This document shows, piece by piece, positions 2,966 to 64,000 of a stretch of DNA of 64,000 bases. The DNA comes from Planctomycetia bacterium. GTDB taxonomy: Bacteria; Planctomycetota; Planctomycetia; JALXBF01; JBGPMX01. Location of the stretch: the NCBI GenBank assembly GCA_036758585.1, contig DAIOWH010000003.1, positions 6,152 to 70,151 on the forward strand, given 5' to 3'. The notes under the pieces were generated by a model. The model was not told where the DNA came from. It worked only from the letters and a program-made list of their open reading frames with translations, and did not search any database. The stretch's first letter is position 1. The number at the start of each line of letters is the position of its first letter. The position numbers were made by a program, and so were the translations under genes.

Positions 2966-3108
2966 TGCGCTCCACACTGAAAGGGGTTTGAATTCGTTTA
3001 ACCCGCAGCCGCAGGCGAGGCACAACCAACGCCAGCCATGCCTCGCCTGCGGCTGCGGGTTAAACGACCGAAGCCGACTTCAGACCCTATTCAGTGTGGA
3101 GCGGTACT
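2966..3108. repeat. nested inverted repeat: perfect 26-bp stem / 16-nt loop hairpin (2997-3064) inside a 14-bp outer inverted repeat (2969-2982 / 3092-3105)
   Basis: TTTAACCCGCAGCCGCAGGCGAGGCA ... TGCCTCGCCTGCGGCTGCGGGTTAAA are exact reverse complements; CGCTCCACACTGAA / TTCAGTGTGGAGCG likewise; lies ~100-240 bp upstream of the giant-gene start. Confidence 0.85.
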
Positions 3109-3193
3109 AAGTCGTCCCGACGCGGCCTGTCGTGCATGGTCGCAAGGCGGGGATGCGTGACCGGGTTCAGTTCGAGGGGAAGAAGACGTCACC

Positions 3194-3198
3194 GAGGT
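3194..3198 (+). promoter_or_regulatory. Shine-Dalgarno GAGGT, 6 nt upstream of ATG 3205
   Basis: accGAGGTaagctcATG; same GAGGT core also precedes the second giant gene. Confidence 0.5.
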
Positions 3199-3204
3199 AA
3201 GCTC

Positions 3205-39200: not shown

Positions 39201-42200
39201 GCCCGACGGCCTGACGCTCTACGGCGTGCTCGGCGCCGCCGAGCCTGCCGCAGCGCCGGGCGCTGCGGGCGACTTGGTGGTGATCGACGCGTTCACAGGC
39301 CAGGGCATCGCCGTAGTGGGCAACATCAGCGCGCCCACCGGCCTGACCGGCGTCACGTTCCGCCCGGCGCTAAACGACAACCCAACGGCCTCCACATCGC
39401 TGGGCAGGGCGCTCGAGATCGCTCGCAGCCCGTCCGTCCCGACGCAATCGCTGACGCTCACGCGCGGCGAAGACGACTGGTTCCGAGTTCAAGCGGTCGC
39501 CGACGGCGGCTTGACCGTGCGAGTCGATTTGCGCGATGCGGTGAACGCCGGCAACCTCGATCCGGGTGAACGGGTCGCGGTCGAACTCTACGACGCCGAC
39601 GGCGCGACTCTGCTGGCCACGGGCCTGATCGACGACCTCCGGAGCGCGGTCGACGGCACTGGGTTCGGCGTCGACCTGCGGCACTACCCGAACGATCCCA
39701 CAACGCCTCCTGTACAGGCCGGCGAGTTTTACCTGGTGCGCGTCTTCAGCAGCAGCTTCGACGCCAACGCCGACGGCGTGGACAACGACGCCGACGGCCT
39801 GACCGACGAGGGAGACGAGTTTGTTCCGGGTTCCAACGAGTACGACATCACGGTCCAAAGTGAAGACCGGTTCGACCAGGTGCTGTCGCCGTCTCAGTTG
39901 ATCGCGTCAGAGAGCGCCGGCGCGGCCGAGCTGTTCGTGTTGGACGCCGCCACAGCCGCGGCCACACTCGCGTCGGCCCTCGCGCCCAATAGCGCGCCCG
40001 ACAGCCTGGCGTTCCATCCGAGCGGCCTGCTCTATGCCGAGCGGACCAATGGTGCGCTGCACGAACTGATGGTCATCAATCCAGAATCGGGCGTGCAGAC
40101 AACCATCGACGGCGCCATTCCCGACGCGGCCGACGTCAACATCGCCGCCGGCGCGACGATCACGGCGCTGGCTGTACATCCCAGAACCTTCCAGTTGTTC
40201 GGCGCGGTCGTCAACCCAGGCACTCCCGCGACTTCAACGCTCGTTACGATCGACCCCAACAACGGGCGAGTCACACCGGTCAACCCGATTCCCACGCTCA
40301 CGGGAGTGGGCGCCATCGGCGGACTGGCGTTCGATGCAACGGGCACGATCTTGTACGGCGTGAGCACGATCTTCGGCGGCATCTTGGTTACGCTGGACAC
40401 GACGACCGGCGTGGCCACGACCATCGGATCGAACGGCCTCGGCGTGCAAGACTTCTCCGGCCTGACGTTTGACTCGACGGCCGGCGCGACCGGTACGCTG
40501 TACGGTGTCGTATCCGCCTCGGATCCTGCGCTGCCGGGTCGGTTGGTGACCTTTGACGTAGCGACTGGCGCGGCGACATTGGTCGGCAACACCGGCCTTG
40601 CGGTGACTGGCGTCGCAGCCCGTCCGGCGCGATTCAGCAACGACATTCGGCAACTGGCCACGCCACTCGGTCCGATCAACAGCCGTAGCGAGGCCGTCTT
40701 GTCGCTGCACGAAGGCGATGAGGATTGGTACAGCTTTTCGATGGCCGTCGCCGGCCGGCTCGAAGTCCGGCTCGATCTGGACGACTTCAACCGCAACTCC
40801 ACGTTCGACGCGGCCGAGCAACTGAAGTTCGAGGTGATTGACGCGGTCTCGGGCGCCGTGCTGGCGTCGAGTGCGATCGCGGGCCGCATCGACGCCACGC
40901 TCGACGACGACCTGAACTCCGTGCCGTTCCCGACCGACGCGGGCGACGATGGGTTCAGCATCGTGGTCGACACGCTGCGGTTTGAGGCCGACCGGCTGCT
41001 CATGGTCCGCGTGTTCGGGCCGGCGAATGAAGTGAACCTCTACGACCTGAACATCAGCGTCGCGTTGCCCGACTCGCGCGGCCCGCGCGTGACTACGGTC
41101 ACACCGGTGCACACGTCGTTCGTAGCGGCGTCGCCGACTCAGCTCGTGATCGATCTGAACGAGAATCTCGACGCCGTGCTGGCCGCGACCGCGGCAAGCT
41201 ACCGCCTGATTCGGTCGGGCGGCGACGGCGTCATCCCCGGCGGCCCGGCGGCCGACGTCGACGTGGCCGGTACGTTCGGCGCCATCGCGTACACGCCCGG
41301 CACACAGGCAACACGAACGATCAACCAGGCTGCGGCGAACGACGCGCTTGACTACACTGCGCGAGCGGCGGGCACCGACGGGAACCGCATTCGCATCCAG
41401 TATCGCACCCCGGCCCCGAATCGGCCGACCGAGACCGTGACGGTCGACGCGACCACCAACTTCCCGTTCATCAACATCATCGTCGACCTGGCCACCAACG
41501 CGGGCGGCACCAGCACCAGCAGCGCCGCGGCCGTCCGCCAGGCGATCCAAACTACTCCGGCCGCCTCGGCCCTGATCGACGTCCAGTTCACCGTGGGCAA
41601 CAACGGCACGGGGACGGTCACGGCGCTCGGGTTGACCGCGCTGCAAGGCGGCGCCGCGTCGCGCGTCGCCATCCCGATCACCGGCGGGCTGCCCGACGAC
41701 CTCTACCAGTTCTCGATCAACTCGACCAGCGGCGTGCGCGACGAACTCGGCAACGCCCTCGACGGCGAGAACCCCGGCTCACTGCCCGACGCCGACCCGA
41801 CAACCGGCCTGCCGTCGGGCGATGCGTTCGTGGGCGGCGACTTTGTCAGCCTGTTCACGATCGATACCGTGCAGCCTACGATCATCGACGTGGTCGATGT
41901 CATGCCCGACCCCGGCACGGCGGCGGTAAGCACCATCGACGTCGAGCTGTCTGAGGTCGTCGACCTGGCGACGTTCGACTTTGGCGATGTTTCGCTGACT
42001 CGCGACGGCGGCTCGGTCGCGCTCGACAACACCGTCACCGTGGCTCGCGTGGGAACGACGCTGTTCTACCGCATCAGCGGGCTCGACAGCTTCACCGCGC
42101 CCGACGGCGCCTATGTGCTGTGCGTCGACGCCACGATGATCCAGGACCTCGCGGGCAACGCCGGCGTGAACCCGGCGCTGCCGGCCGACCGGTGCGACGA

Positions 42201-48873: not shown

Positions 48874-51800
48874 ATGACGAGACCAGGGTCCGTGAACCGG
48901 CCTCCTCACTTGAAGGCGAAACGGCGGACACCGCGCAAGAGTTCCGGCCAAGGCATGTCTTTGGAACGGCTGGAAGAGCGCGTACTGTTGGCGTTGGATA
49001 TTCCGGAAGGCGCCCACCCCATTTTCGCGCCAGGTACTCCCCAGGAGTACATGGCGCAGCATCCTGATCACTTCCGAGAGAACGGGCTGCCTGGCGGGGC
49101 GCTCGGATTCACATTCAACGACGTGGACCGCTGGTCTCAGACGGCCACCGACGGCGCCGGGCTGAACCAGGGCGACCCCACAACGCTGACATGGGGCATC
49201 ATTGCCGACGGAACACTGATCAACACCGGCGCGACGAGCAACCTGATTGCTCGCATGGGCACCATTTACGGCAGCGTGGCGGGGCCGGTCAACGCCCAGC
49301 CGTGGTTCACGGTCTTCCAACAAGTCTTCGATAACCTGCAAGCGAACTCAGGTATCGACTATGTCTACCACGCGGCCGACGATGGCGTTCAGATGACGAA
49401 CGCCAATCGCGGCATCTTGGGAGTGCGCCCCGACATTCGAATCGGCGGTGCGAATATTGACGGGAACTCTGGCACGCTTGCCTATGCCTTTTTGCCGAAC
49501 TTTGGCGACATCGTCATCGACACCAACGACAACTTCTTCAACGACACCGGCGGCAACTCGCTGGGTTTTCGCAATGTGCTGGCTCACGAAGAGGGGCATG
49601 GCGTCGGACTCGGTCACTCTTGTCCGGTCGATCTGACGAAGCTCATGGAGCCGACCGTCACGTTCGCGTTTGACGGCCCGCAACATGACGACCTGTTGGG
49701 GATAAACCGCGGCTACGGCGATCGCCTGGAACCGAACGACAACACACTTTTTGCGACGGACCTGGGCGTGCTCAACGGGACGACTGCTTCCCTGAGCAAC
49801 GTCACCATCGACGACGATTCGGACCTCGATCTGTTTCGCTTCAGCGCCACAGGCCCCACCACGACAACCGTCACCGTTAACCCGTTTGGGTTCACCTACC
49901 CGTCGGGGCCCGAGATCGCGACCAGCACCTGTGGGGCGAACAATCCGAACTTCGACTCACTGAATCAGAGTGACCTGAGTCTGGAGATACTCGACAGCAC
50001 CGGCGCGATCATCGCCAACGCCAACGCCAACGGTCTGGGCGTGGGCGAGAACCTGGCGAACGTGACGTTGCCGGCGGCCGGCGACTATTTCGTGCGACTG
50101 CGTGGGGCCCAGAATGCCGCTCAGTTCTACACGCTCAGCGTGAACGTGGCCCAGTCGGCTACGGGCGGCGGCAAGAGCGGCAGCACCGTGCAACTGACGT
50201 CGGTGACGGCCGATGACGTGTTGAACACGCCGCGCGACACGTTCGGATTTGTGCTGCGCCGCAGCGAGATCGACGCGCTGGGAGGGCAGCCGGCCCTCGA
50301 TATCCGCGACCCCGTGTTGTTGCCCGACCCGGTGAACGACATCAAGGCGTTTACCGTGTTCTTCGACGGCGCACTCGACCCAATCAGCGCCGAAGATGAG
50401 GCGAACTACGACCTGCGCAGCACCGGCAATCCGGTGACCGCGTCCGATGATGGGCTGTTCGATACCACCGACGACTTCCAGTACCACGTCACTCCGCGCT
50501 ACATCACGACGCTCGACAACCCTGAAGACCTCGACACCAACCCCGACCCGGCCGTCGTGCTTGAAGTCCAGCTTCCGGCGGGACTGACCGAGTTCCCGTC
50601 CGGGCGGTTCCGTCTGACGGTGCGCGGCGGCGACCCGGTGCTGGGCGCCAACAACCTGCCGATTAACTCACAGGACGCGGGACCCGATGAAGTGTTGTAT
50701 TTCAAGACGGTTCATCGCCCCACGGCGCAGCCGCCCGACGGAGTGACCGCGAACGTCTATGTCGACGTGACCAACACGACGGCGCCGTTCCTTGGCACAA
50801 GCGCCGATCCGTTCAATGACATCCAGACCGGATTGAACGCAGCGGCGCCCGGCCAGACGGTGTTGGTGCGGTCGAACCTCGCCAGGGTCCCCTACGTTCA
50901 GGACGATCTGGCAAACGACGGCGTGCAGGATTTCGACCGCAATATCACAGTGCCTGCCAATGTTCGGCTGGTGTTCCAGCAGGGCGCGATCGTAAAGCTG
51001 CGCGATGCGATCATCGACGTGTCGGGTGCGAATGCGCAACTCGACGCGATTGGCACGTTCGACAACCCGGTCGTGTTCACCTCCTTTGCCGATACGCTGC
51101 CCGACACCGGCGCTCAGACCGGCGCGCCGAAGGCTGAAGACTGGGGCGGAATCGTTTTCCGCGCCGGCTCGGATAGCGCCGGGTCGCGGATAGAGTTTGC
51201 CGAGATACGCTACACGGGCGGCGAGGTCGGCAGCGTGCGCTATGGCGCGGTGCACGGCCTGACTTCCCAGCCGACGGTCACGAACACCATCATCACCAGT
51301 GCGGGGCAGGCCGCGTTCAGTTTCGACTTGTTGAGCTTTACCGGCACGGGTCCATCGCTCGCCGGCAACTTCCTGGAACGCAACACCATCAACGGCGTGC
51401 TCGTGGTGATCCCGCAGGGGACCACGGTGTCGAACGTGCCTGGCCAAGCCGTCATGTTCGATGACCCGATCGACCACGTCTTCACCCAAAGCCTGACGAT
51501 TCCCGGCGGGGCCAGCGTAACGACCAGCAATACGAACCTGAAACTGTCCAAGGCCGTCATCGATCTGCGCGGCGCGGCCGCAGCAGGAACGCCGTCATCG
51601 CTTACGGCCATCAACACCCACTTCACGTCGATTCAAGACGACACGACCGGTCGGACCGCCGACGAAGTGGGCAACCTGCAGACCGACGCCACCGGCAACG
51701 GCAGCGTGCTGGCGCCGCAGCCTGGCGACTGGGGCGGCATCGACGCAACCACCGACGATCCGACGCTGCCCCTCGGTCCGTCGCTGACCATTCTGAGCGA

Positions 51801-54800
51801 TGTGGACAACGCTGGCGCGCTGGCGGGCCAGATTCAGCCTGATCCGGCGCTCTCGCGTGTGGCCTTCGGCGCGGGCACGTTCCTGCGCGGCGGGTTTCCC
51901 CAGATCATCCGCGGGAACATCGACTACGGCGAGACCTTCGCCAACGATGGCAACTTGGCAGACTCGCACGGCAACACGATCAACATTCAGGGCACGACCA
52001 TCGCGTCCAGTTTGTCGGCGGGGCTGTTCCTGACCAACGCGGGCGGCGTGTTTCAGGACAACGATTTCCTGAGCAACAGCGACGCCGCAATCTCGATCGA
52101 CACCACCTCGTTCCACATCCTGCGCGACCCGGTGTTCCGGCGCAACATCACGCAGGGAAACCAACTCAACGCGCTGGCGATCCGGTCTGGGACCTTCGGC
52201 GGTGGTGCGGACCGCCTCTACGAGTTCAACGATCCGGACATCGTACACGTCGGCAGGGGCAACCTCGCGATCAGCGACGGTTCGGGGCTCGCCGTGCTCA
52301 CACTCCATCCGGGAGTCGCCTTCAAGGCTCAGTCGGGCGCGGGGCTGACGGTGACAGGCGCCGACTATCGCACCGCGTTCAACAATGTCGGCAACGGAGC
52401 GCTGGTGCTGGACGGCGACCCTGACGGTGCGCCGTTCCCCGGCAAGCTGGTGGGGCGATTCACCACGTCGTTTGCCGGCCTGAACAACGACTTGTCGTTC
52501 ACCGCGCGGGAACCGCTGCCGCGCGGGAACTTCACGATTCGGTTTGTGGCCACCGGTGCGTTGAGCGCCTCGGTGGTTCCAGGAGCGGGCATCGGGGGCG
52601 CCGATCGCATTGACATCACCATCGCAGCCGGTACGACCACTGCGAAACATGTGCGCGACGTGGTACTTCGTACGCCGCGCGTAGCGGCCGTGCTCGACGT
52701 CGCGCTCGCGGCCGATTCCGACGGCACCGGCCTGGTTGCCGCCCTCGCCGAGACCGCGCTGCCGTTGACTCCAGACGAATCGCCGCGCCCGATCCAGTTG
52801 ACCACGATCGCCGACGATTCGATCGGGCCTTCGGTGTTTCGGTTCGGCCAGGATGGCCGGCCGGGCCGAGCCGGCGTCGATGACGACGGCGATGGCTTGA
52901 CCGACGAGGGCGATGAGCTTGGGACCGCGGCCAGCGACGACGAGGCCGTTCCGCAAACCGACGCGCAGGGCAATGGAAGCAGCACGCCCACGGCAGCCGA
53001 CTTCTGGACCGGCCTCAATTACAGCTACTTCTCCAATGATCTCGTGCCCGAACGAGACATCAACGGCAACGGTGCGCTCGACCCTTGGGAAGACCTGAAC
53101 TCGAACGGCGTGTTCGATCAGCTTGAAGAAACGCTCGACTGGCGCACGAACAATACGGCTGGACTGGACATCGGCGAGGACCACGACCAGGACGGCGTGC
53201 TGGAACGCATCGTAGGCAACGTCGCCAACTTCATCGAAGTTCGGTTTGCAACCAACGGCATCCTGCACGAAGGACCACGACACAGCGCCACACTGGCCGA
53301 CTCGCACGATGGCGAACTCGGCGCCACAGGCGTCAACGAGAGCATCGCCACCGCGACCCCGCTGGGCAACATCGGCGGACGCGACGGCAATGATCAGGTG
53401 CCGTCGTTCCGGACCCCGAACCGCGCGCTGCGGGCGACCGGCAACATTGCCTCCGGCGCCGATGTGGACTTCTGGTCGTTTACGGCCAACCCCGGCAGTA
53501 CGATCACCATCGACATCGACCACACCACGACCCGTTGGGCCGGCGACAATCACCTCGACCCGATCGTCTCGCTGTTCTACGTAAAGCGCGACGATCCGGG
53601 CGCGGGCAAGTTGATTCTCTGGGCCGTCGCCAACAATAACGACTCCGCGGTGGACACGGTTCTGGATCCCCTCGAGCAAGACGACACCGATCCCGCCCTG
53701 ATCAACATCAACGTCCCGGGTATCGCGGCGGTCGACGACACCTACTACGCGGCCGTCACCGCGTTCAACAACCTGCCCGATTTCTTGTTCGCGCTGCCGC
53801 TCAGCGGCCCGGACATGCAACTCGCCAACTACGCCTGCACTGCGCGGCCGGACGGCGGGTTCGACGTCGTGGTACTTGACTTCGACGCGATTCGTTCGGA
53901 CGACACGTTCGACGAGAATAATGCGGTCGCCACGAACTGCCCGGGCCTGACCGGGCCTAACACAGGAGGGGGCGACAACGTCGGACAGTATTCGCTGCTC
54001 ATCCGTGAAACGCAGCGCGACATCGTCTATCCGAGCGGCTCGTTCGAGGTTACCAACAGCCAGTTTCGCAACATCACGGGCGACGCCGTTCGTATCGCCA
54101 CTCCGGCCGACCCGACCATGCGCGATCGGATCGCGCCAGCCGTTCACACCGGTGGTAACACGGCGCTGCCGACCAACGGCACCGGACCGACGCTGCTTGC
54201 CACCGGGGCTCGCATTGAGAACAACGAGTTCGCCAACATCGGCGACGACGGCGTGGAGCTGATCGGCGATCCGGGCGCCGGCCGCTCCATCCGGCACGAC
54301 TGGGTGTTGAACAACACGTTCTTCAACACCGGTACGGGCCTCGACCTGCGCAGCCGACTGGGCGCGACCGTGCTCAACAACATTTTCGCCGACGTGACCG
54401 GCACCGCGATCGCCAGCGACGGCACTTCGGCAGTGGGGTTGGGTGCAGGCACCGACAGCCTGGTCGTGTCGAACAACTTGTACCACTCGAACGGCGCGAA
54501 TGGCTTGTTGGGCACTGTGTTCTTCCCGAATCTGCAATCGCCTGCGAGTGATCCGCTGTTCTTCGATCCGACCGGCTTGTTCCCCGACCTGCGCATCACC
54601 GATAATTCGGCGGCGGTGGACAGCAGCCTGAGCGATCTCGAAGACCGCCTGGGCAACGTGCGTTTGTGGATGGGGGTGGACCCAAGTTCGCCAGTACCCG
54701 TTGGCGGCCTGAGGCCGGAGTCGCTGCTGGTCCCCGAACGTGTGGGACGCGACACCGCGTTGGACCGCAACCAGATTGAGCGCATCGATCTACCCGAGCT

Positions 54801-57800
54801 TTCGAACCCGAATCTCGGCTTGGGTGAGGATCCGTTCTTCGATATTGGCGCCAACGAGGCGACGGATTTCCTGCCGCCGCAGGTAATCCGATTGGGCCTC
54901 GCGCCGCAAAGCGACACCGGCGAAATCAACGAAGTCGAACCGCTGCGCACGCGGCAGTCGCGGCCAACCTTCCGCGGACTCGTGGTTGATTTCACCGAGA
55001 CTGTGGGACGGCCGGAGCTGGACGAGGTAGCCGGCCTGCAGGTGGACATTGACGTGGATGGCGATGGCTACGACGACGGCGCCGCGACGACCAGCCTGTT
55101 CTTCGACCCCGAAACCGGTTTTCCGGTGTTCTATAACGTCCGCAACAACGGGCTGGTCGTGGTGCGCGAAGTCAGTCTGCTGCCGACGGGCGCCGAGTTT
55201 CGACGCGTCGGCGTGTTCGAGGTTCAGTCAACGCTTGATATTGTTGACTCGGCCGACCTGACCATTCGCGCGCGTGTGCTCGACAAGGCCGGACGGTCAT
55301 CGGCCGACCGACCGTTGCGCATCGCGGTCGATACCGTGCGACCGGGGGTTCAGACCGTCACGTCGAGCCTCAGTTCGTCGGACCTGGTCATGGAGTTCGA
55401 CGAGCAGGTGCTGCTGGCCGGCAATAACCTTCAGGAGAACCTACAGCTCGAGGTGACGACCGGCGCGGCGGTCACGGCGGCGCCCGACCTGGCCAACGCG
55501 GCCCTTGTAGGCAACAGCGGCGGCGCGGCGGGCGACCTGTTCGGCACACAGCACACAGTGAATGACTTCGTCATCGCGCCGCTTCCAGTGGCCGGGTCCG
55601 ATGGTGCAGCCTTCTTCCGTGGCCCCTTCAACAATACAACGGGCGCCGATCGGCCCGTCATCACCGTCAACGAAACATCGGGCGCGAACCTGGACCTCGC
55701 ACCGGGGCGACTCTTCGAATTCCCTGGCCCAAACAACGACCTGTTGATTACCGGGCGCGGCGCGCTGCCCGACGACACGGTGGTGTCGGTCGAGTTCCGC
55801 CACGTCGCGCTGCCGAATCAGCCGCTGGGCGTGAGCGTCGTTCGCACCCAGGCGTCGTTGCCCACCGCGCTGGCCGGCGTGGACAACGACATCGTGTTCA
55901 CGGCGCACCCGACGAACTTCCCCGGCTCGGCGGGCAACGCACTGCGCATCGAGTATCGGGTCGCCGGCCTGAACACACCGCTCACCGTGGCGGTGAGCGG
56001 CGCCGCCATCACGGTGAACGTCGCGACCAACGCGACCGGCCAACCGACTAGCACGGCGGCCCAAGTGCGCGACGCGGTCAACGCAAGCGGGGCGGCCAGC
56101 ACGCGCGTATCCGCCGCACTGGCGTCGGGCAACAGCGGCACCGGCGTGGTCGCCGCCCTGCCCACCACGAGCCTCAGCGGTGGACGAGACGCCATTGGGG
56201 TTACGCTCGACACGGACGGAGCAGGCGCCGTCGATAGCACGACGAGCGGGCCGAACGCCGCCACGACTGTCCGCGACGCCATCAACGCCGCGGCCGGCAC
56301 ATTGGTAACCGCCTCGCTGACGCCGACCGACACGGGCGCCGCCAACACCGGCGCCGGCGCCGTCGCCGCGCACGCCGCCGCACCAATGAACACGGGCGAG
56401 TTCACCATATCGCTCTGGACGTTCATCCGCGACCACGGCGCCGGTCCGGGCGTGAGCAACGTCGATTTCCTGTCGCCCACGCGCCGCCCGCTGGCGACGA
56501 AACGCGACGCGACAACAGGCCAGGGTTGGTCGCTGGTGCTCGAGAACATCCCCACCGACTCGCCGGAGCAATTTCTGGTGTTCGAAGTGTACGACGCCGC
56601 CGGCGCACGTACGCACCGCATTCAATCGACCAGCGCCGTGCCGTCGAACCAGTGGGCGCATGTCGCCCTGTCGTATAACCCGGTCACCGCTGAGTGGCGG
56701 TTCCATCTGCTGCAATCCGCCTCCACCGTAATGGACCCGGACGGCGACGGCGCGGGCAACGACCGCCTGCACTTCGTGGCTGCTCAACCGGGGGCGATCG
56801 GCAACAGCGTATCGATCGACTACACGTTGGGGGCGGCCGAGCAAGTGTTCGTCACCGGCAGTGCGGTCACGGTGCAGCTCGTGGCCGGCACGACGACCGC
56901 AAACCGTGTGTTGCAGATGGTCGCCGCCGACCCAAACGCCTCGCAACTATTTGTCGGGCGTTTGGCGCCCGGCAGCAACGGAACCGCAGCGATAAGCCGG
57001 GCCGTGGCGACACGGTCGCTGACGGGCGGTCAAGGCCCTGCGGTGGTCACATCCGGCGAGACGCGGGCCGAGGTCACGATTGGGGCGGCGGCGTCCGCCG
57101 TCCGGTTCCAGGCGGTTCAAGCGGGCGCGGGCGGCAACGCGATTCGGGTTCAGTACACTGCGGGCGGCACGGCCCAAGTTTCCGTTGCCGGCAGCGACGT
57201 CACCGTGCAGGTGACGGGAACCACGACCGCGGCCCAAGTCGTGCAGTTGATCAACGCACACACTCAAGCCTCGCAACTGCTCCTTGCCCGGTTGCCTGAT
57301 GGATCGATCGGCGGCGGGCTAGTCGGCGCGGTTGGGTTCACGTCGCTCACCGGCGGCGTGTTCCCGCTCTCGGCGGCGACCACGGGCGACCTGCTGATCG
57401 GCGCCGAGGCGGTCCCGGCGGCGTCGGCCACGTTCGACGGGTTCATCGACGAAGTACAGATATGGAACCGCGACGTGTCGCTGGACGAAATCAGCCAGCT
57501 TCCGAGCGCGGAGCTTCCGCGAGCCATCGCGGTGCGCAACGTAACCGGAAGCAATCAGGACCTGCCGATCGTCGCCGTTTCGCTGACGACAGTGGCTGGC
57601 CGCACTCAGGTGACCGCGACCGTCGACGGCGATCCGACGACCGCCGGCGTTCAAGTCCTGCCGCGCGGCAATGTGTACGAGCTGGAAGTATTCGCCCAGC
57701 CGACGCTGACCGACGTGGCGGGCAACCGCATCAACGGTCGAGTCATTGCGTTCGGTGTGGGCGAGGACGTCTTCGACCTGAACACGTCGCAGTTCAACGC

Positions 57801-60800
57801 GCCCCCCGAGTTCCCGCTCGACCCGAACGGCCGCAATGACGCGCCGACCACGAACGTGTTTACCGATCTTGGCACAACCGCCCACCGCGCCGTTGTACTC
57901 GACTTCTCACAAAGCGATCTGACGGTCACTCCAGTCTCGGCGGCCCCGGCGCTGCCGGCTGACGAAGATTGGTTCCGCGTAGATGTGTTGGCTGCCGGCG
58001 AGTTCACGGCGGGCCTCACGGCTCGCGACCCCAACAACGACGGCGTGCTGAACGCCGACGAAGGAATAGTGGTCGAGGTGTTTCGAGCGGCCGACACAAC
58101 GACTCCGGTCGCCGCGGCCACACCCAGCCAAGTCGCCACGGCGACTCGGACTTCCGCGGTCTCCGTTTCGGCCCGCGAGCTGCTCTTCTTGCGAGTGCGC
58201 ACCGACGACGGCGACGACTTCAATCGTTATGAGCTGGAGTTGATCGTCAACGATTTGTTTGACGCGGCGGCCGGCTTCACGCTGCCGCCGGCCACAGGAC
58301 CGTTGCCGATCGACCTGGCGGGCCGGAACGATGACGCTCAAGCAATCATGGCGGCTACGCTGATCACAGCGTCGCTCGCCCCAGGCAATTCGGGGGCGGG
58401 CTTCGTGGCGCCGCTCGACTTCCCGCTGGCCGGCGGAGTCGATACGCCCGCCACACAGGCGACTCTCACCACCAGCGTGGCCGGTAACGACAACGACCTC
58501 GTGTTCACCGCAGTACCAGTGGGCGCCGCCGGCAATGGGATTCGCGTGCGGTATGTGAACGCCGGCGTCAATCAGCCGCTGGGCGTGACAATCGATGTAG
58601 CGAACCGCATCATCACGGTTAATCTGGCGACGAACGGCGCTGGCACAGTAACGACGACCGCCAATGACATTCTGCAACTGTTGCAGGTGCGAGCGACCGA
58701 CCTGGGCGGCGTCGCCGATCGCTCGCTCAGCGACTTCGTGGGCGGATCGGACCTCACCATCGCGGTCGACCCGGTGAGCGGCGCGCCCGACGTCGACTTT
58801 TATCGCATGACAAGCACGGCGGTGGGCACGCTGTCGCTGTTCATGAACGTGCGCGACCCGAACGGCGACGGCCAACTCGACGACGGCCTGGCCAGCGGCC
58901 GCGATGAACGCATCGACCTGGCGATCGTCAGTCCCGCCGATCCGTTGGGTGCGGCGCTGGCGACGGCGACGCAGTCGGTCCTGTCGCCGTTCCTGTTCGA
59001 GATTGTGAATCAGTCGGTGAGCACGGTCGGCCAGGAGTTCTGGGTCCGTGTGCGCGGCACGAGCGCTGAGTCGGCCAACGCCTACGACCTCCGAATGGTG
59101 AACGATGATCGGTTCGAGTTGGCCGCGTCTGTGGCGCCGGTCGGCGACGGCATTTTGCCGGACGATCCGGACGGTCGCAACGACGTGGTCGCCGCAGCCA
59201 CCGACTTGGGCACGGTTTTCACATTCGCCGAAGACGACCTAACGATCACGTTGGGCGACGGCGTGGTTCGCGATACCGACTTCTTCCTCTACACTGCGCC
59301 CGACGACCTGGTGTTCAACGTGTTTGCGGACGTAGCCGACATCAACCGCAACGGCGCGCTCGACGCCGCCGAGACGCTTGGCCTCGAAGTGCTCGACCCC
59401 ACGGGCACGACCGTACTGGCCACCGGGTCGGTGTTCGGAACGTTCCCCGGCAGTGTGATTGTCGATTCGGGGTTTGTTCAGCTTGCGTCGGGCCAGTCGG
59501 TGCTGATCCGCGTGTTCGGTTCGGCCGGTGTCGCCAACAGCTACGATCTGCGGGCCTTGGCCGACGACCGGTTCGATCATCCGTTCCGGTCGGGCACGGT
59601 CGCGAAACCAGGCGGCGTCGATCCGGCCGGTCGCAACGACTCGTCGGACGACGCCAGCGGCGCTGGGGCCGATGATGTACGGCGCACCGATTTGGGTACG
59701 GTCGTTCACCTGACCGAGAACTTCCTGCGTGTTTCCGACGAAGACAGCCACAATTTCCTGTTCACCGCACCGACGCCGGCGGCGGGTCTCGACGGCCAGA
59801 CGCTCACGATCGACGACGGACTGAACCCGCCGACTATCTTTGAGTTCGACAACAATGGCAGCACGGCGCTGGGCCAGGTGGGAGTGAACTTTGCCGCGTT
59901 GACGACGGCCGATGAGCTGGCCGCAGCGATCCGCAGCGTCATCAACGGGATCGGTGCGGCCCTGAACGCAACGGCGTCGGGCAGCGGCTCGCAGGTCGCC
60001 GTGTCGAGCGCGATCCGCGTCGTGAGTGGTGCGTTCCCGATCGCCGCGGCGCACGACGGCGATTGGTTCCGCGTGACGGCCGCCGTATCGGGTGCGCTCG
60101 GCATCCACGTAGACCTGATCGACGCCGATCGCAACAACCAGATCGACGCCGTCGAAATCCTCGGACTCGAACTGTACGAACTGGACCCAATGACCAACCG
60201 GGCGGGCGATCGGCTCGCGGTTGGCGTGCTCGACGTGGTGAGCCGTCAGGTTCGTATTGACGGCTACCCTGCGATGGACGGCGAATCGTTCCTGGTGCGC
60301 GTCCGTGAGGGTGTGAACTTGCCCGTCGCCGCCGTGTCTGGCGGGGCGACGGTGACGTGCAATCTACAGCCGTTGGGGCCGCCAGCGCCGGCCCCCGTTG
60401 GGCAACCAAACGACGACCTTTCGAGTGGGCCGTTCAACCTTGGCTTCACGTTCGAGTTCTTCGGCAACAACTTTACGCAGTTCTTCGTGAACAATAACGG
60501 CAATATCACGTTCACCGCGCCGCTGTTCTCATTTACGGCAACGGGCTTTCCGAACCCCTTTGGTATTGCGATGGTGGCCCCGTTCTGGGCGGACGTCGAC
60601 ACCCGCGGTGCGGGTTCCGGCCTGACGCGACTGCAACAAGGCACCAACCCATCGACCGGGCGACCGTTCATCCAGGTGGACTGGCCCGATGTCGGATACT
60701 TCAGCAGCAACGTTGACAAGCTGAACGACTTCTCACTGTACATCGAAGATGATCCGTTGGGCGACCTCATCTGCTTCGACTATCGCGATATGGAATGGAC

Positions 60801-63800
60801 AACGGGCGATGTGTCGGGCGGCACCAATGGGTTTGGAGGTACGGGCGCCGCTATTGGTTTCGATGCGGGCGATGGAGTGAACTTCATCAGTTTGGGCCGA
60901 CCCAACGATGCGACCGGAGTGGCGGCGTTTGCGAACCGGACTGAGGTTTTCGTGCTTGGGCCAGGCGGTGTGCCGGGAGCGCCGCCGAGTCCGCCGCCGC
61001 CGGGAACGGTCAACGCGTCGAATGACGGCGGCAACGACCAGGTTTCGCCTGCCGCCGCGATCAATCCGCTGGACACCCGGGACGTCGCGTCTGTCGTTCA
61101 AAGTGTGGACAACAACACCGGTGCATCGGTGGTGGATGTCCTCGCGTCGAACGACGGCGGCCTGACGTTCACACGCACGCGGTTTACATCTACGTTTGAC
61201 GCGCTCGGATCGGGTCGTCGTTCGAGTCCCGACGCGGTGTTCGACGCCAACGGGAACCTGTACGTCGCGTACGCATTCGATAATGGAACGACGCGTCGAG
61301 TCGTGGTGACACGCAGCACCGACCAGGGCCTGACGTTCAGCGCGCCTGCGTTGCTTACTCCACTAGGGGCCGGGGCTGTTCCCGAGACAGTCTCGGTCGC
61401 GACTGGCCGCGACGTCGTGAACCCGAACCAGCAAAACGTATTCGTCGCTTGGAGTGAAGTAGGCGGCGGTACGGGACTCGGCCAGCGCATCGCTGTAGCC
61501 GGCGCGGCGGCATCGACCCCGGGTGGCACGATCAACCCGTTCAGTTTCACGGTCACCAAGGACGCATCGTCCAATGCAGCGACCGGTCAACAACCGCGCA
61601 CGCCCGACATCGGCGTGGACCGCGCCGGACGGGTCTTCGCCACGTGGACCGACTACGGGTCGAGCCCCAACCCGATTCGTCTCGCACGGGACGATAATTT
61701 CTTTGGAACCGGTCTGGCGGGGTTTGGTTCGGCCAGCGTGGTGACCACGAACCACGTCGGGTTCCGGCGATCGGTCCCAGCGCAGCCGCAGCGCGGAGTC
61801 AGTGCCAGTCCGTCGATTGCCATCGATCGCAGCGATGCGGCCGATCCCGACTTCGGCCGGAATTCCGGGCGAATCTACGTCGCGTACACCGAAACCGGTC
61901 TGGACGGCGTCGGGGACCTGGACACGTTCCTGCGCTTCTCGGACGATGCCGGCGCCTCTTGGAGCCGCCCACAGCGGATCAACTCGCAGAACCGGGCGAG
62001 CCAGTTCAATCCTGCGATCACCGTCGATTCGACCACGGGACATGTTTTTGCCGTCTGGCAGGACACACGTCGCGATGTGGCGAACACCCTCGCCGAGCCG
62101 TTCATCGCACAGAGCATCGACGGCGGGCTGAACTTCCAACTCGACGTGGCACTCGCCACCGCGCCGTCTAGTCAGGCGGGGAATGCCGAACCGATCGAAG
62201 ATTTCGGCGATCGGATGGGCATTGCCGCGGCCAGTCATGTCGTGTTCGCCGCATGGGCCGACAACACGGCTCAGGCTACGGATTTGGAAACACTCACGAA
62301 CCGGCTGGTGCAGGTGGGCGGGCGCAATTTCTACAACCTGACGGTCGACAACTCCGATCGGCGTGAGTTGCAGACGGTGGACCGTGAGTTCGACGCGACA
62401 CTGAACTCGGGGAACCTCTTTGCATCCACCGACGGCGTCGCCGGCATCGGAGTCGCCGGGCCGCTCGCCACATTGGACGAGTTCACCGGCGCGGGGACCG
62501 TGCAGACTGAGATCGATACGCTGCCGGCGTTCGTTCAGCGCGTCGCTGGGGCGATTGGCGATATCGACTTCAGCCCAACCGGCGAATTGGTGGGCGGAAC
62601 GGCCTTCGTCAGTTCCGCACAGCCTGGCGAGACGCTAGTGTTCGTCGATCCGGACACCGGCCTCGTGTACAACCAGGCGACTATCACCGGAGTGGGACTG
62701 CCGCAGAGTTTCTCGGTCACCGCGCTCGAGTTCCAACCGGGCAGCGGCACGCTGTTCGTCGCCTTGGACTTTGATCCGGGGACCAAGGGATCGCCGTCGC
62801 AGTTGGGTACGATCAACGTCGCCGGTTGCGGCGTGGGAACTTGCACGGTCAACTTGCTGGGCCAGACGAACGTCGGCGAGATAGGCGGGCTGGCGTTCAA
62901 TCCGGTCAGCGGCGAGCTCTACGGCGTCACGTCGACCAGCGTCGGTGGCGGCGACTTTGTCGTGCTCAGCACAACGACCGGTGCGGCCATCTCGACGGTG
63001 CCGTCGGGCCGCCGCGACTACACCGGACTCGAATTCTCGCTCGATGGACTCGCGCTCTACGGCGTGCTGGGGCCGGATGAAACCATCGGCGCCCCCGGTG
63101 ACCTGGTGTCTATCGATCCGTTCACCGGCCAAGCCGGCACGATTGGCGCAACAAGTCTGATCGATCCGCGCACGGCCGGCCCATTGCCAAACGCGATCAG
63201 CGGCATCAGCTTCCGACCGCGGCGCAACGAGCGGCCGCAAGCGGGCACGGGCGGCGGCCGCTTGGCTCAGGTCACGGAAGCCGACATGACGCTGCTCGAA
63301 GGCGAAGAGGATTGGTATCGCATTCAGATGCCGGTCGCGGGCGGGTTGACCGTACGGCTGGACCTGCCCGACTCCGTACCAACCGATCGAAACTCGGACG
63401 GCCGAGACAACGACGGCGATACGCTAGTCGACGAGGGCGACGAGTTCGTGTTTGGCTTCCTCGACGCTCAAGAACAACTTGGACTCGAACTGTACGACAG
63501 CACCGGCGCAGTCCTGCTGGCCACGGGCGTGGTCGACGACCTGGCCGCGGTCGACGGCAGCGGATTCGGCGTGTTCATCGACCACCAATCCGTCACGCCG
63601 GTGGCAGGCGCCGTAGACCCATTCCTTTTGGTTCGAGTGTTCGGCGCCGCCGGATCGTTCAACGAATACGACCTGGTCGTAAGGAACAACGACCGATTCG
63701 ACCAGGCTTTGGTCCCGTCGGCCCTGTTTGGGTCGGACGCGGCCGGCCAGCTTGTGACGGTTAATGGCAGCACCGGGCTGACCACCGCCGTCGGGCCACT

Positions 63801-64000
63801 CGCGCCAGTGCCGACCGACATCGAATTCCATCCGCGCGATGTACTGTTCGGCGAAAGTCGGGCGGCGGCAGGCAGCTTCAACAATCTGCTCCGAGTTGAT
63901 CCCGCCACGGGCACTACGACGGTGGTGTGTGCGGCCGCGCCGTGCGACAACACGGTGTTCGCCATTACGGCGCTGGAGTTCGATGCGACGGTCGGTTCGC
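48874..64000 (+). CDS. second giant multidomain protein (5' partial in window: >=5,042 codons, no stop before window end) with N-terminal metzincin zinc-metalloprotease head
   Basis: frame-1 reading from ATG 48874 remains open to position 64000 (verified at the motif sites and window end; absent from ORF track because no stop in window); alternative start ATG 48955 (MSLERLEERVLL...); domain vocabulary parallels gene 1. Confidence 0.85.
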   Translation, partial: MTRPGSVNRPPHLKAKRRTPRKSSGQGMSLERLEERVLLALDIPEGAHPIFAPGTPQEYMAQHPDHFRENGLPGGALGFTFNDVDRWSQTATDGAGLNQGDPTTLTWGIIADGTLINTGATSNLIARMGTIYGSVAGPVNAQPWFTVFQQVFDNLQANSGIDYVYHAADDGVQMTNANRGILGVRPDIRIGGANIDGNSGTLAYAFLPNFGDIVIDTNDNFFNDTGGNSLGFRNVLAHEEGHGVGLGHSCPVDLTKLMEPTVTFAFDGPQHDDLLGINRGYGDRLEPNDNTLFATDLGVLNGTTASLSNVTIDDDSDLDLFRFSATGPTTTTVTVNPFGFTYPSGPEIATSTCGANNPNFDSLNQSDLSLEILDSTGAIIANANANGLGVGENLANVTLPAAGDYFVRLRGAQNAAQFYTLSVNVAQSATGGGKSGSTVQLTSVTADDVLNTPRDTFGFVLRRSEIDALGGQPALDIRDPVLLPDPVNDIKAFTVFFDGALDPISAEDEANYDLRSTGNPVTASDDGLFDTTDDFQYHVTPRYITTLDNPEDLDTNPDPAVVLEVQLPAGLTEFPSGRFRLTVRGGDPVLGANNLPINSQDAGPDEVLYFKTVHRPTAQPPDGVTANVYVDVTNTTAPFLGTSADPFNDIQTGLNAAAPGQTVLVRSNLARVPYVQDDLANDGVQDFDRNITVPANVRLVFQQGAIVKLRDAIIDVSGANAQLDAIGTFDNPVVFTSFADTLPDTGAQTGAPKAEDWGGIVFRAGSDSAGSRIEFAEIRYTGGEVGSVRYGAVHGLTSQPTVTNTIITSAGQAAFSFDLLSFTGTGPSLAGNFLERNTINGVLVVIPQGTTVSNVPGQAVMFDDPIDHVFTQSLTIPGGASVTTSNTNLKLSKAVIDLRGAAAAGTPSSLTAINTHFTSIQDDTTGRTADEVGNLQTDATGNGSVLAPQPGDWGGIDATTDDPTLPLGPSLTILSDVDNAGALAGQIQPDPALSRVAFGAGTFLRGGFPQIIRGNIDYGETFANDGNLADSHGNTINIQGTTIASSLSAGLFLTNAGGVFQDNDFLSNSDAAISIDTTSFHILRDPVFRRNITQGNQLNALAIRSGTFGGGADRLYEFNDPDIVHVGRGNLAISDGSGLAVLTLHPGVAFKAQSGAGLTVTGADYRTAFNNVGNGALVLDGDPDGAPFPGKLVGRFTTSFAGLNNDLSFTAREPLPRGNFTIRFVATGALSASVVPGAGIGGADRIDITIAAGTTTAKHVRDVVLRTPRVAAVLDVALAADSDGTGLVAALAETALPLTPDESPRPIQLTTIADDSIGPSVFRFGQDGRPGRAGVDDDGDGLTDEGDELGTAASDDEAVPQTDAQGNGSSTPTAADFWTGLNYSYFSNDLVPERDINGNGALDPWEDLNSNGVFDQLEETLDWRTNNTAGLDIGEDHDQDGVLERIVGNVANFIEVRFATNGILHEGPRHSATLADSHDGELGATGVNESIATATPLGNIGGRDGNDQVPSFRTPNRALRATGNIASGADVDFWSFTANPGSTITIDIDHTTTRWAGDNHLDPIVSLFYVKRDDPGAGKLILWAVANNNDSAVDTVLDPLEQDDTDPALININVPGIAAVDDTYYAAVTAFNNLPDFLFALPLSGPDMQLANYACTARPDGGFDVVVLDFDAIRSDDTFDENNAVATNCPGLTGPNTGGGDNVGQYSLLIRETQRDIVYPSGSFEVTNSQFRNITGDAVRIATPADPTMRDRIAPAVHTGGNTALPTNGTGPTLLATGARIENNEFANIGDDGVELIGDPGAGRSIRHDWVLNNTFFNTGTGLDLRSRLGATVLNNIFADVTGTAIASDGTSAVGLGAGTDSLVVSNNLYHSNGANGLLGTVFFPNLQSPASDPLFFDPTGLFPDLRITDNSAAVDSSLSDLEDRLGNVRLWMGVDPSSPVPVGGLRPESLLVPERVGRDTALDRNQIERIDLPELSNPNLGLGEDPFFDIGANEATDFLPPQVIRLGLAPQSDTGEINEVEPLRTRQSRPTFRGLVVDFTETVGRPELDEVAGLQVDIDVDGDGYDDGAATTSLFFDPETGFPVFYNVRNNGLVVVREVSLLPTGAEFRRVGVFEVQSTLDIVDSADLTIRARVLDKAGRSSADRPLRIAVDTVRPGVQTVTSSLSSSDLVMEFDEQVLLAGNNLQENLQLEVTTGAAVTAAPDLANAALVGNSGGAAGDLFGTQHTVNDFVIAPLPVAGSDGAAFFRGPFNNTTGADRPVITVNETSGANLDLAPGRLFEFPGPNNDLLITGRGALPDDTVVSVEFRHVALPNQPLGVSVVRTQASLPTALAGVDNDIVFTAHPTNFPGSAGNALRIEYRVAGLNTPLTVAVSGAAITVNVATNATGQPTSTAAQVRDAVNASGAASTRVSAALASGNSGTGVVAALPTTSLSGGRDAIGVTLDTDGAGAVDSTTSGPNAATTVRDAINAAAGTLVTASLTPTDTGAANTGAGAVAAHAAAPMNTGEFTISLWTFIRDHGAGPGVSNVDFLSPTRRPLATKRDATTGQGWSLVLENIPTDSPEQFLVFEVYDAAGARTHRIQSTSAVPSNQWAHVALSYNPVTAEWRFHLLQSASTVMDPDGDGAGNDRLHFVAAQPGAIGNSVSIDYTLGAAEQVFVTGSAVTVQLVAGTTTANRVLQMVAADPNASQLFVGRLAPGSNGTAAISRAVATRSLTGGQGPAVVTSGETRAEVTIGAAASAVRFQAVQAGAGGNAIRVQYTAGGTAQVSVAGSDVTVQVTGTTTAAQVVQLINAHTQASQLLLARLPDGSIGGGLVGAVGFTSLTGGVFPLSAATTGDLLIGAEAVPAASATFDGFIDEVQIWNRDVSLDEISQLPSAELPRAIAVRNVTGSNQDLPIVAVSLTTVAGRTQVTATVDGDPTTAGVQVLPRGNVYELEVFAQPTLTDVAGNRINGRVIAFGVGEDVFDLNTSQFNAPPEFPLDPNGRNDAPTTNVFTDLGTTAHRAVVLDFSQSDLTVTPVSAAPALPADEDWFRVDVLAAGEFTAGLTARDPNNDGVLNADEGIVVEVFRAADTTTPVAAATPSQVATATRTSAVSVSARELLFLRVRTDDGDDFNRYELELIVNDLFDAAAGFTLPPATGPLPIDLAGRNDDAQAIMAATLITASLAPGNSGAGFVAPLDFPLAGGVDTPATQATLTTSVAGNDNDLVFTAVPVGAAGNGIRVRYVNAGVNQPLGVTIDVANRIITVNLATNGAGTVTTTANDILQLLQVRATDLGGVADRSLSDFVGGSDLTIAVDPVSGAPDVDFYRMTSTAVGTLSLFMNVRDPNGDGQLDDGLASGRDERIDLAIVSPADPLGAALATATQSVLSPFLFEIVNQSVSTVGQEFWVRVRGTSAESANAYDLRMVNDDRFELAASVAPVGDGILPDDPDGRNDVVAAATDLGTVFTFAEDDLTITLGDGVVRDTDFFLYTAPDDLVFNVFADVADINRNGALDAAETLGLEVLDPTGTTVLATGSVFGTFPGSVIVDSGFVQLASGQSVLIRVFGSAGVANSYDLRALADDRFDHPFRSGTVAKPGGVDPAGRNDSSDDASGAGADDVRRTDLGTVVHLTENFLRVSDEDSHNFLFTAPTPAAGLDGQTLTIDDGLNPPTIFEFDNNGSTALGQVGVNFAALTTADELAAAIRSVINGIGAALNATASGSGSQVAVSSAIRVVSGAFPIAAAHDGDWFRVTAAVSGALGIHVDLIDADRNNQIDAVEILGLELYELDPMTNRAGDRLAVGVLDVVSRQVRIDGYPAMDGESFLVRVREGVNLPVAAVSGGATVTCNLQPLGPPAPAPVGQPNDDLSSGPFNLGFTFEFFGNNFTQFFVNNNGNITFTAPLFSFTATGFPNPFGIAMVAPFWADVDTRGAGSGLTRLQQGTNPSTGRPFIQVDWPDVGYFSSNVDKLNDFSLYIEDDPLGDLICFDYRDMEWTTGDVSGGTNGFGGTGAAIGFDAGDGVNFISLGRPNDATGVAAFANRTEVFVLGPGGVPGAPPSPPPPGTVNASNDGGNDQVSPAAAINPLDTRDVASVVQSVDNNTGASVVDVLASNDGGLTFTRTRFTSTFDALGSGRRSSPDAVFDANGNLYVAYAFDNGTTRRVVVTRSTDQGLTFSAPALLTPLGAGAVPETVSVATGRDVVNPNQQNVFVAWSEVGGGTGLGQRIAVAGAAASTPGGTINPFSFTVTKDASSNAATGQQPRTPDIGVDRAGRVFATWTDYGSSPNPIRLARDDNFFGTGLAGFGSASVVTTNHVGFRRSVPAQPQRGVSASPSIAIDRSDAADPDFGRNSGRIYVAYTETGLDGVGDLDTFLRFSDDAGASWSRPQRINSQNRASQFNPAITVDSTTGHVFAVWQDTRRDVANTLAEPFIAQSIDGGLNFQLDVALATAPSSQAGNAEPIEDFGDRMGIAAASHVVFAAWADNTAQATDLETLTNRLVQVGGRNFYNLTVDNSDRRELQTVDREFDATLNSGNLFASTDGVAGIGVAGPLATLDEFTGAGTVQTEIDTLPAFVQRVAGAIGDIDFSPTGELVGGTAFVSSAQPGETLVFVDPDTGLVYNQATITGVGLPQSFSVTALEFQPGSGTLFVALDFDPGTKGSPSQLGTINVAGCGVGTCTVNLLGQTNVGEIGGLAFNPVSGELYGVTSTSVGGGDFVVLSTTTGAAISTVPSGRRDYTGLEFSLDGLALYGVLGPDETIGAPGDLVSIDPFTGQAGTIGATSLIDPRTAGPLPNAISGISFRPRRNERPQAGTGGGRLAQVTEADMTLLEGEEDWYRIQMPVAGGLTVRLDLPDSVPTDRNSDGRDNDGDTLVDEGDEFVFGFLDAQEQLGLELYDSTGAVLLATGVVDDLAAVDGSGFGVFIDHQSVTPVAGAVDPFLLVRVFGAAGSFNEYDLVVRNNDRFDQALVPSALFGSDAAGQLVTVNGSTGLTTAVGPLAPVPTDIEFHPRDVLFGESRAAAGSFNNLLRVDPATGTTTVVCAAAPCDNTVFAITALEFDATVGS
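48958..48996 (+). other. N-terminal 'LERLEERVLLALD' motif after basic leader
   Basis: MTRPGSVNRPPHLKAKRRTPRKSSGQGMSLERLEERVLLALD. Confidence 0.6.
49000..49700 (+). other. metzincin (matrixin-like, M10-type) zinc metalloprotease catalytic domain
   Basis: HEEGHGVGLGH = HExxHxxGxxH (codons 49585-49617) followed by Met-turn 'TKLMEPT'; no PRCG cysteine-switch seen. Confidence 0.75.
49720..50150 (+). other. PPC-like domain immediately after the metalloprotease
   Basis: 'RLEPNDNTLFATDLGVLNGTTASLSNVTIDDDSDLDLFRFSATGPTTTTVTV.....YFVRLRGAQNAAQFYTLSVNV' matches EPND..A..l / D.D.(Y/F).F PPC pattern. Confidence 0.55.
50740..52450 (+). other. parallel beta-helix region I (homolog of gene-1 7200-9480)
   Basis: 'VVFTSFADTLPDTGAQTGAPKAEDWGGIVFRAGSDSAGSRIEFAEIRYTGG' parallels gene-1 motif. 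Confidence 0.45.
52873..52920 (+). other. thrombospondin-type-3-like Ca-binding motif
   Basis: GVDDDGDGLTDEGDEL; same DGLTDEGDE core at gene-1 39760-39825 and at 63385-63450. Confidence 0.4.
53950..54700 (+). other. parallel beta-helix module II (homolog of gene-1 23160-23900)
   Basis: NNEFANIGDDGVEL, NNTFFNTGTGLDL, NNIFADVTGTAIA, SNNLYHSNGANGL ... DPLFFDP....ITDNSAAVDSS. Confidence 0.5.
55860..56350 (+). repeat. module A copies in gene 2
   Basis: 'DNDIVFTAHPTNFPGSAGNALRIEYRVAGLNTPLTVAVSGAAITVNVATNATGQPTSTAAQVRDAVNASGAAS....GNSGTGVVAALPTTSLSGG'. Confidence 0.55.
57340..57540 (+). other. LamG-like (Laminin_G_3) domain C-terminal portion
   Basis: 'FDGFIDEVQIWNRDVSLDEISQL'. Confidence 0.5.
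60400..60960 (+). other. NIDO-like domain
   Basis: 'FNLGFTFEFFGNNFTQFFVNNNGNITF.....GIAMVAPFWADVDTRG.....FIQVDWPDVGYF......FSLYIEDDPLGDLICFDYRDMEWTTGD' (APFWADVD codons 60577-60600). Confidence 0.6.
61000..62300 (+). other. BNR/Asp-box beta-propeller
   Basis: LASNDGGLTFTRT, TRSTDQGLTFSAP, RFSDDAGASWSRP, AQSIDGGLNFQLD; 'TNHVGFRRSVPAQPQRGVSASPSIAIDRS'. Confidence 0.65.
62400..63240 (+). other. unassigned beta-propeller-like module (gene-2 copy; another begins ~63710)
   Basis: '...DIDFSPTGELVGG...LVFVDPDTGLVY....SVTALEFQPGSGTLFVALD....EIGGLAFNPVSGELYGVTS....LEFSLDGLALYGVLG....GDLVSIDPFTGQAG....ISFRPRRNE'. Confidence 0.4.

Follow-up and report, generated by a model that had tools for sequence, protein, structure and literature searches.

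What is a domain best known from animal extracellular proteins doing inside a giant protein of a planctomycete, and is it really that domain? The question is raised by gene 2, the second of two neighboring giant genes on a 64,000-nucleotide stretch of DNA from a Planctomycetia bacterium (assembly GCA_036758585.1, contig DAIOWH010000003.1, positions 6,152 to 70,151 of the forward strand), to which we refer as the window and on which all positions given below are counted. A sequence-only reading of the window had noticed that one segment of gene 2 follows the order of the conserved blocks of the NIDO domain found in nidogen, mucin-4 and SNED1, and had described this domain as mainly metazoan. 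Our analysis established that the segment is a genuine NIDO-family domain (PF06119) of bacterial type.

Identity of the NIDO Segment

Frame +1 from 60382 to 60980 is free of stops and reads FTFEFFGNNFTQFFVNNNGNITF, MVAPFWADVD, FIQVDWPDVGYF and FSLYIEDDPLGDLICFDYRDMEW, so that all peptide blocks quoted in the sequence-only reading are present, whereas the other two frames across the same interval are interrupted by stops. As an isolated segment this translation matched the Pfam NIDO model with an E value of 9.7e-21 and a score of 75 bits, three times the gathering cut-off of 25. The score was 67.2 bits when the segment sat within a long fragment. In the Pfam scan of 60382–60980, PF06119 was the sole significant family, and NCBIfam contained no family for either the NIDO module or gene 2.

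For comparison with the animal domain we used the N-terminal part of human nidogen-1 as a query. This query was validated: it scored 207 bits over the whole Pfam NIDO model and retrieved database entries for Nidogen-1 at 77–98% and for nidogen-2 at 44% identity. BLASTP aligned the segment with this query at 33% identity over 83 residues (E 6e-5), in a stretch that spans the N-G turn and the APFxADxDT core. We also built an alignment of 35 bacterial sequences (A1: the window and 34 relatives) and compared it with an alignment of seven vertebrate nidogens (A2) by means of hhalign. The two profiles matched over 154 columns with a probability of 96.9% (E 2e-10) and with all blocks in the same order, in agreement with the Pfam result. 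Homology to the NIDO domain of vertebrate nidogens is thus real but distant.

The features shared with animal NIDO domains (PF06119, SMART SM00539; nidogen-1/2, MUC4, alpha-tectorin, SNED1) are the N-G turn, the A-P-F-x-A-D-x-D-T core, in which the APFWAD block picked out by the sequence-only reading aligns with nidogen-1, V-x-x-Y, K/N-T-F-Q and the later blocks. Bacterial NNNGN corresponds to T-N-G in the vertebrate proteins (A1 versus A2). In contrast, NNNGN as such, R75 and the Gly-rich loop W-x-TGD-x-SGG are bacterial-only invariants that are absent from nidogens. Both the animal domain and the one described here would be extracellular modules of multidomain matrix or surface proteins, but their partners differ: animal NIDO domains occur together with EGF, AMOP, vWD and G2F domains, whereas the partners in the window are a metzincin, PPC-like modules and a BNR propeller.

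Boundaries and Predicted Structure

Within A1, the sequences align end to end: homology begins at the NDD motif (nt 60409) and continues to around residue 192 (nt ~60957). Twenty-two positions of this alignment are invariant, including NNNGN, DVDTR, the G-Y of VGYF, and W139, G142, S145 and G147. The domain in the window carries every family-invariant residue, among them also NDD and G150. Most residues that are invariant in A1 were invariant again in an independent sample of 44 sequences (A4).

AlphaFold2, supplied with alignment A1, returned a compact all-beta model with 12 strands between residues 4 and 192 (predicted local distance difference test score, pLDDT, 87.6; predicted template modeling score, pTM, 0.87). 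The block of lowest confidence is the Gly-rich loop at residues 141–150 (mean pLDDT 60). When the alignment is read together with this model, the invariant polar residues fall mostly into loops between predicted strands. The segment is thus predicted to be a discrete, folded all-beta module that is set between two proline-rich linkers (Table 1). The model and the bacterial alignment contain C-terminal strands beyond the PF06119 match, which are probably too divergent for the Pfam model. The interval 60400–60960 that the sequence-only reading had assigned to the domain fits the family alignment, the linkers and the structure model. Searches of PDB sequences, whether with the domain alone or with a profile of the family, yielded no related solved structure, and a Foldseek comparison of the model with the PDB gave nothing meaningful (best E 0.4, TM < 0.25).

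Table 1. Positions in the window of the NIDO module, its motifs and flanks, and the related features of genes 1 and 2 (~ marks approximate limits)
Feature	Position	Strand	Description
Gene 1	3094–48621		Single open frame of 15,175 codons
vWA-fold module of gene 1	36388–37164	+	259 aa, begins VDVVVIVDESGSMAGEH; metal ion-dependent adhesion site (MIDAS) motif DESGS; same slot as NIDO in gene 2
Gene 2	48874–64000	+	ATG at 48874 (MTRPGSVN...); uninterrupted, >5,040 codons; leaves the window end at 64000
HEEGHGVGLGH	49585–49617	+	Intact HExxHxxGxxH zinc-binding motif in the N-terminal Peptidase_M10-like domain of gene 2
PPC-like module directly upstream of NIDO	60055–60324	+	Paralogous to gene 1 nt 36124–36387, 47% identity
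Upstream Pro-rich linker	60370–60408	+	PLGPPAPAPVGQP; from sequence
NIDO module	60409–60957 (~)	+	~183 aa, NDD motif to last predicted strand; PF06119, alignment A1, AlphaFold2 model
Pfam NIDO match	60478–60894 (~)	+	Profile positions 2–157 of 186
NNNGN	60490–60504	+	Invariant turn between strands 2 and 3; alignments A1 and A4
APFWADVDTR	60577–60606	+	Core motif; A-P-F-x-A-D-x-D-T common with vertebrate nidogen (APFLADLDTT)
MEWTTGDVSGG	60790–60822	+	Start of conserved Gly-rich loop; W139, G142, S145, G147 invariant; bacterial-family-specific
Downstream Pro-rich linker	60976–61005	+	GAPPSPPPPG; from sequence
Block downstream of NIDO	61009–63942	+	Propeller of BNR/sialidase-like type plus the modules after it; paralogous to gene 1 nt 37162–40122, 45.6% identity over 1,045 columns

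Distribution of the Family in Bacteria

The sequence-only reading had assumed that NIDO has few bacterial representatives, and this assumption proved wrong. In a scan of GTDB genomes, one per species, we confirmed at least 550 loci (a lower bound) from phyla and classes that include Planctomycetota, Bacteroidota, Proteobacteria, Cloacimonadota, Ignavibacteria, Cyanobacteria and Actinobacteria. The best 80 of these loci come from Planctomycetaceae, Phycisphaerae, many Bacteroidota, Cloacimonadota, Ignavibacteria, Burkholderiales, Accumulibacter, Sphingomonadales, Cyanobium and Jatrophihabitans, and the best match to the domain among those listed by tblastn for these genomes, which do not include the source genome, has 60% identity. 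A word-indexed protein search with a threshold of E ≤ 1e-3 gave 903 clusters. Among these, the top 120 are 41–58% identical to the domain, all have a precomputed PF06119 assignment, and most are proteins of 220–330 residues that often end in a PEP-CTERM tag (PF07589). HMMER, run exhaustively against 1.84 billion cluster representatives (50% identity), returned 15,869 at E ≤ 1e-3, 6,282 at ≤ 1e-10 and 3,161 at ≤ 1e-30; since the profile included signal-peptide and PEP-CTERM columns, only the count at E ≤ 1e-30 is to be taken as NIDO.

All 44 relatives that were sampled from the best 150 representatives match Pfam NIDO. They range in size from small PEP-CTERM proteins to giant ones, and their partner domains, all modules of the surface and secretion kind, comprise CarboxypepD_reg, HYR, He_PIG, autotransporter, PKD, PEP-CTERM, cadherin-like, GEVED, RHS, TPS, SLH and LVIVD. 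Giant NIDO proteins in the databases have 4,253, 4,410, 4,724 and 6,174 residues. The smallest of these (P0168, 4,253 aa) contains 15 separate stretches that match the bacterial NIDO profile, compared to the single copy in the window, and would be a tandem NIDO array.

Public databases already label such proteins as nidogen-like, under names such as 'Nidogen-like/PEP-CTERM motif', 'nidogen-like domain-containing protein' and 'VPLPA-CTERM sorting domain-containing protein'. A literature search on bacterial NIDO returned only animal papers. The domain in the window therefore adds one member to a family that is abundantly annotated and, according to the literature searched, experimentally unstudied.

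The closest relatives outside Planctomycetota are small PEP-CTERM or VPLPA-CTERM proteins of about 270 residues, which consist of a signal peptide, NIDO and the sorting tag. At 44–54% identity they can be aligned with the module of gene 2 from end to end, and they share all of its invariant residues. PEP-CTERM proteins, in the account of the PEP-CTERM/exosortase system attributed to Haft and colleagues, are the cargo of exosortases and are associated with bacteria that produce exopolysaccharides. Gene 2 does not have this stand-alone architecture: its NIDO module lies inside a protein that exceeds 5,040 residues, with a linker and then a BNR-type propeller downstream.

Placement among Relatives

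The domain is 57–70% identical to copies in metagenome-assembled genomes (MAGs) of Planctomycetaceae and Phycisphaerae (loci L002–L006) and to a further copy at locus L007, 44–53% identical to other bacterial copies, and 20–27% identical to vertebrate nidogens. The comparison of bacterial with metazoan sequences that the sequence-only reading had called for was carried as far as a neighbor-joining tree, in which the window sequence falls into a planctomycete clade together with the copies at L002–L007 and vertebrate nidogens form a distant outgroup. This grouping comes from a crude tree without support values and with three animal sequences only. The nearest relatives of the domain, the DUF1501 gene upstream of the giant pair and the style of the giant genes themselves all point to a planctomycete as the source.

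As in gene 2, the NIDO modules of these closest relatives are embedded in larger proteins. At L002 and L004–L007 they lie in open frames that extend across the entire locus and have lengths from >1,192 to >4,204 residues. The flanks of these modules are not collinear with gene 2, with which only shuffled beta-helix and BNR-type pieces match (about 28–30%), and the loci are therefore mosaic relatives rather than orthologues of gene 2. The Phycisphaerae locus (L003:760-6453) encodes a complete protein of 1,898 residues with an FTP propeptide, Peptidase_M36 (fungalysin), SdrD_B, NIDO, SpaA-like and CHRD domains, and provides a second case of NIDO joined to a secreted metalloprotease. Locus L007 (CAYODZ010000083.1), with the giant open frame of >4,204 residues, comes from a MAG labeled 'uncultured Gammaproteobacteria'. 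Its NIDO copy adjoins that of the Planctomycetaceae MAG L002 in the tree, and the locus has a BNR-type block in common with gene 2. Label and placement disagree, which could reflect mis-binning or horizontal transfer.

One Slot, Two Unrelated Modules

The sequence-only reading found no NIDO counterpart in gene 1, and we could substantiate this: neither phmmer searches of all six frames of the window with the segment nor Pfam scans covering the full 15,175 residues of gene 1 revealed a second copy. Gene 1 does contain the surroundings of the domain. The PPC-like module directly upstream of NIDO and the propeller block downstream of it both have paralogs in gene 1 (Table 1), and between these paralogs gene 1 carries a different module of 259 residues.

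This module has no Pfam match at E ≤ 1. It has 37 database relatives at 35–46% identity, nearly all of them PEP-CTERM or VPDSG-CTERM proteins of 285–310 residues and a few annotated as VWA. The residues D-E-S-G-S are invariant in the alignment of these relatives, and the profile of the family matches the vWA domain of the SpaC adhesin (E 8e-4) and integrin I domains. The structure model of the module (pLDDT 88.4) matched 245 PDB chains at E ≤ 1e-3, and those listed are almost all of vWA or integrin I type with a probability of 1.00. The idea that the slot in gene 1 holds a degenerate NIDO domain was rejected, given the vWA fold and the lack of any NIDO similarity.

Thus, the same slot of a paralogous block holds a vWA/integrin I-type domain in gene 1 and NIDO in gene 2, and the placement of NIDO in these giant genes is cassette-like and interchangeable. 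The two folds are unrelated, one alpha/beta Rossmann-like and the other all-beta, and have no sequence similarity; yet the nearest relatives of both are small PEP-CTERM proteins. The shared slot and the PEP-CTERM relatives suggest a common role as exchangeable surface binding cassettes.

Proposed Function and Alternatives

Gene 2 encodes, in this order, an M10-like metzincin, a beta-helix, Laminin_G_3, PPC-like repeats, NIDO and the BNR/sialidase-like propeller. Its N-terminus matches Pfam Peptidase_M10 (E 1.2e-8) and retains an intact zinc-binding motif. NIDO lies approximately 3,840 residues into the protein; downstream come a Pro-rich linker and over 1,000 additional residues. With this composition gene 2 is probably a mosaic secreted or surface protein. 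An extracellular location is what we infer from the signal peptides of the relatives, from their PEP-CTERM, autotransporter, TPS and SLH partners, and from the remaining domain content of gene 2 itself.

Against this background we propose, with a probability of about 0.6, that NIDO is a unit by which a giant extracellular protease-adhesin binds a ligand or a matrix outside the cell. The domain would help to tether or target this metzincin-adhesin, with a polymeric substrate or the matrix of the cell itself as the destination. The candidate binding site consists of the clustered invariant polar residues that the model places on loops (NDD, NNNGN, DVDTR and W-x-TGD-x-SGG), and a bound Ca2+ may be present there. 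A vWA domain with MIDAS is the classic metal-dependent adhesion domain, and the substitution of NIDO by such a domain in gene 1 is consistent with a binding unit. The pairing with secreted proteases, M10-like in gene 2 and M36 in the Phycisphaerae protein, is consistent with a role in targeting. Furthermore, the NIDO domain of TECTA is stated to mediate collagen binding (preprint, 10.1101/2024.01.04.574255), and this too is consistent with a binding unit.

Several observations weigh against this proposal. For gene 2, whose C-terminal end the window does not reach, the export route is putative. In the literature searched, bacterial NIDO domains have neither a ligand nor a metal nor any binding activity assigned to them. 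The candidate site was derived from conservation and predicted secondary structure, as the PDB searches found no related solved structure. The slot shared with vWA shows that the modules are interchangeable, not that they have the same function. Finally, 22 invariant positions at approximately 45% overall identity across phyla are more than a simple adhesion module usually needs, and such strict invariance would be compatible with a site for catalysis or for a cofactor as well.

The last point leads to an alternative in which NIDO is an enzyme or a cofactor-binding domain with the invariant Asn, Asp, Thr, Arg, Ser, Tyr and Trp residues as its active site. The strictness with which polar residues (NNNGN, DVDTR, Y106, W139, S145) stay invariant from phylum to phylum is unusual, some relatives join NIDO to hydrolases (GDSL lipase, M36), and several of the invariant residues are not kept in vertebrate nidogens, as would fit the loss of a site in animals. 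However, no catalytic family in Pfam, NCBIfam or the PDB matched the domain, its relatives are mostly single-domain surface-anchored proteins or adhesin-like mosaics, and gene 1 carries an adhesion-type vWA domain in the same slot, so that we consider catalysis decidedly unlikely. The opposite alternative, a structural beta-sandwich spacer, perhaps stabilized by Ca2+ and without a specific ligand, is unlikely as well. It would suit a class of giant surface proteins that contain many such modules (gene 1 alone has Big_13 sixteen times and Big_6 twelve times), Asp/Asn-rich loops often bind structural calcium, and no ligand has been reported for the NIDO module. Spacers are usually repeated, though, whereas the two giant genes contain a single NIDO copy in more than 20,000 residues; the stand-alone proteins with NIDO and PEP-CTERM hold little else, which means that the domain itself must carry the function; and invariant exposed loop residues are unexpected in a spacer.

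The remaining alternative concerns origin: NIDO could have been acquired recently from an animal, or the window could be contaminated with animal sequence. What speaks for it is base composition. At a G+C content of 0.576 the module is the lowest of any 549-nucleotide stretch in gene 2 (mean 0.649, standard deviation 0.024; G+C of the window, 66%), and with 0.727 its G+C at third codon positions lies in the 5th percentile of gene 2 (0.799). On the other hand, the low G+C is partly due to a composition rich in Asn, Phe and Thr, and the module shares an uninterrupted reading frame with bacterial-type domains to either side. With 20–27% identity to nidogens as opposed to 44–70% to bacterial copies, a position in the planctomycete clade and relatives in at least 550 bacterial species genomes, a metazoan origin or contamination is effectively refuted and has a negligible probability. 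The low G+C may be a trace of acquisition as a cassette.

Beyond the binding unit that we favor, a broader proposal is tentative and on balance rather improbable. According to it, bacterial NIDO would be an ancient, strongly constrained extracellular module with an unrecognized specific activity, either Ca2+-dependent binding of glycan or matrix or catalysis at the NNNGN, DVDTR and W-x-TGD-x-SGG loops. This module would serve both as stand-alone exosortase cargo and as a cassette that can be swapped with vWA in the giant protease-adhesins of planctomycetes, and would be the prokaryotic source of the animal domain. If this were true, the NIDO domain of animal extracellular matrices, itself poorly defined in function, would have come from prokaryotes.

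The finding as such has little weight, because the Pfam family concerned already counts thousands of bacterial members and now gains another. It is useful as a correction, in that NIDO in a bacterial genome should not be flagged as an animal-type rarity. The bacterial family is large, highly conserved and widespread, and a structure and a ligand from it might clarify the poorly understood animal domain. In addition, the exchange of NIDO and vWA at one slot of neighboring giant genes is a clean example of cassette assembly in giant planctomycete surface proteins, from cassettes that also occur as small PEP-CTERM proteins.

Other Features of the Two Giant Genes and Their Surroundings

Both giant genes open with a protease domain, Peptidase_S8 in gene 1 and the M10-like domain in gene 2. 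The two proteins also have in common the motif LERLEERVLL(S/A) (nt 3397–3426 in gene 1, 48961–48990 in gene 2), which follows a long, basic, Arg-rich leader. No family model matched this motif, which may be a shared export or processing signal.

Downstream of its N-terminal subtilase domain, gene 1 encodes BNR_2, FG-GAP, NHL, InhA-like MAM, Laminin_G_3 and beta-helix domains in addition to the Big_13 and Big_6 repeats mentioned above. Large parts of the protein (for example residues ~7,600–11,600) are nearly without Pfam coverage. PPC-like repeats with the pattern 'D.DW/FYR...N.YDL...NDDRF' occur at approximately 57,600–60,324 (residues ~2,930–3,816 of gene 2) and at residues ~9,460–11,100 of gene 1. 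They are paralogous within and between the two genes at 27–47% identity, and their Pfam PPC matches are weak.

Two smaller genes precede the giant pair. The first, at 63–1442, encodes a DUF1501 protein (E 4.5e-87), and the second, at 1492–2475, a PD40/TolB-like beta-propeller of which identical copies exist in public assemblies (NCBI, JGI, Logan, ENA).

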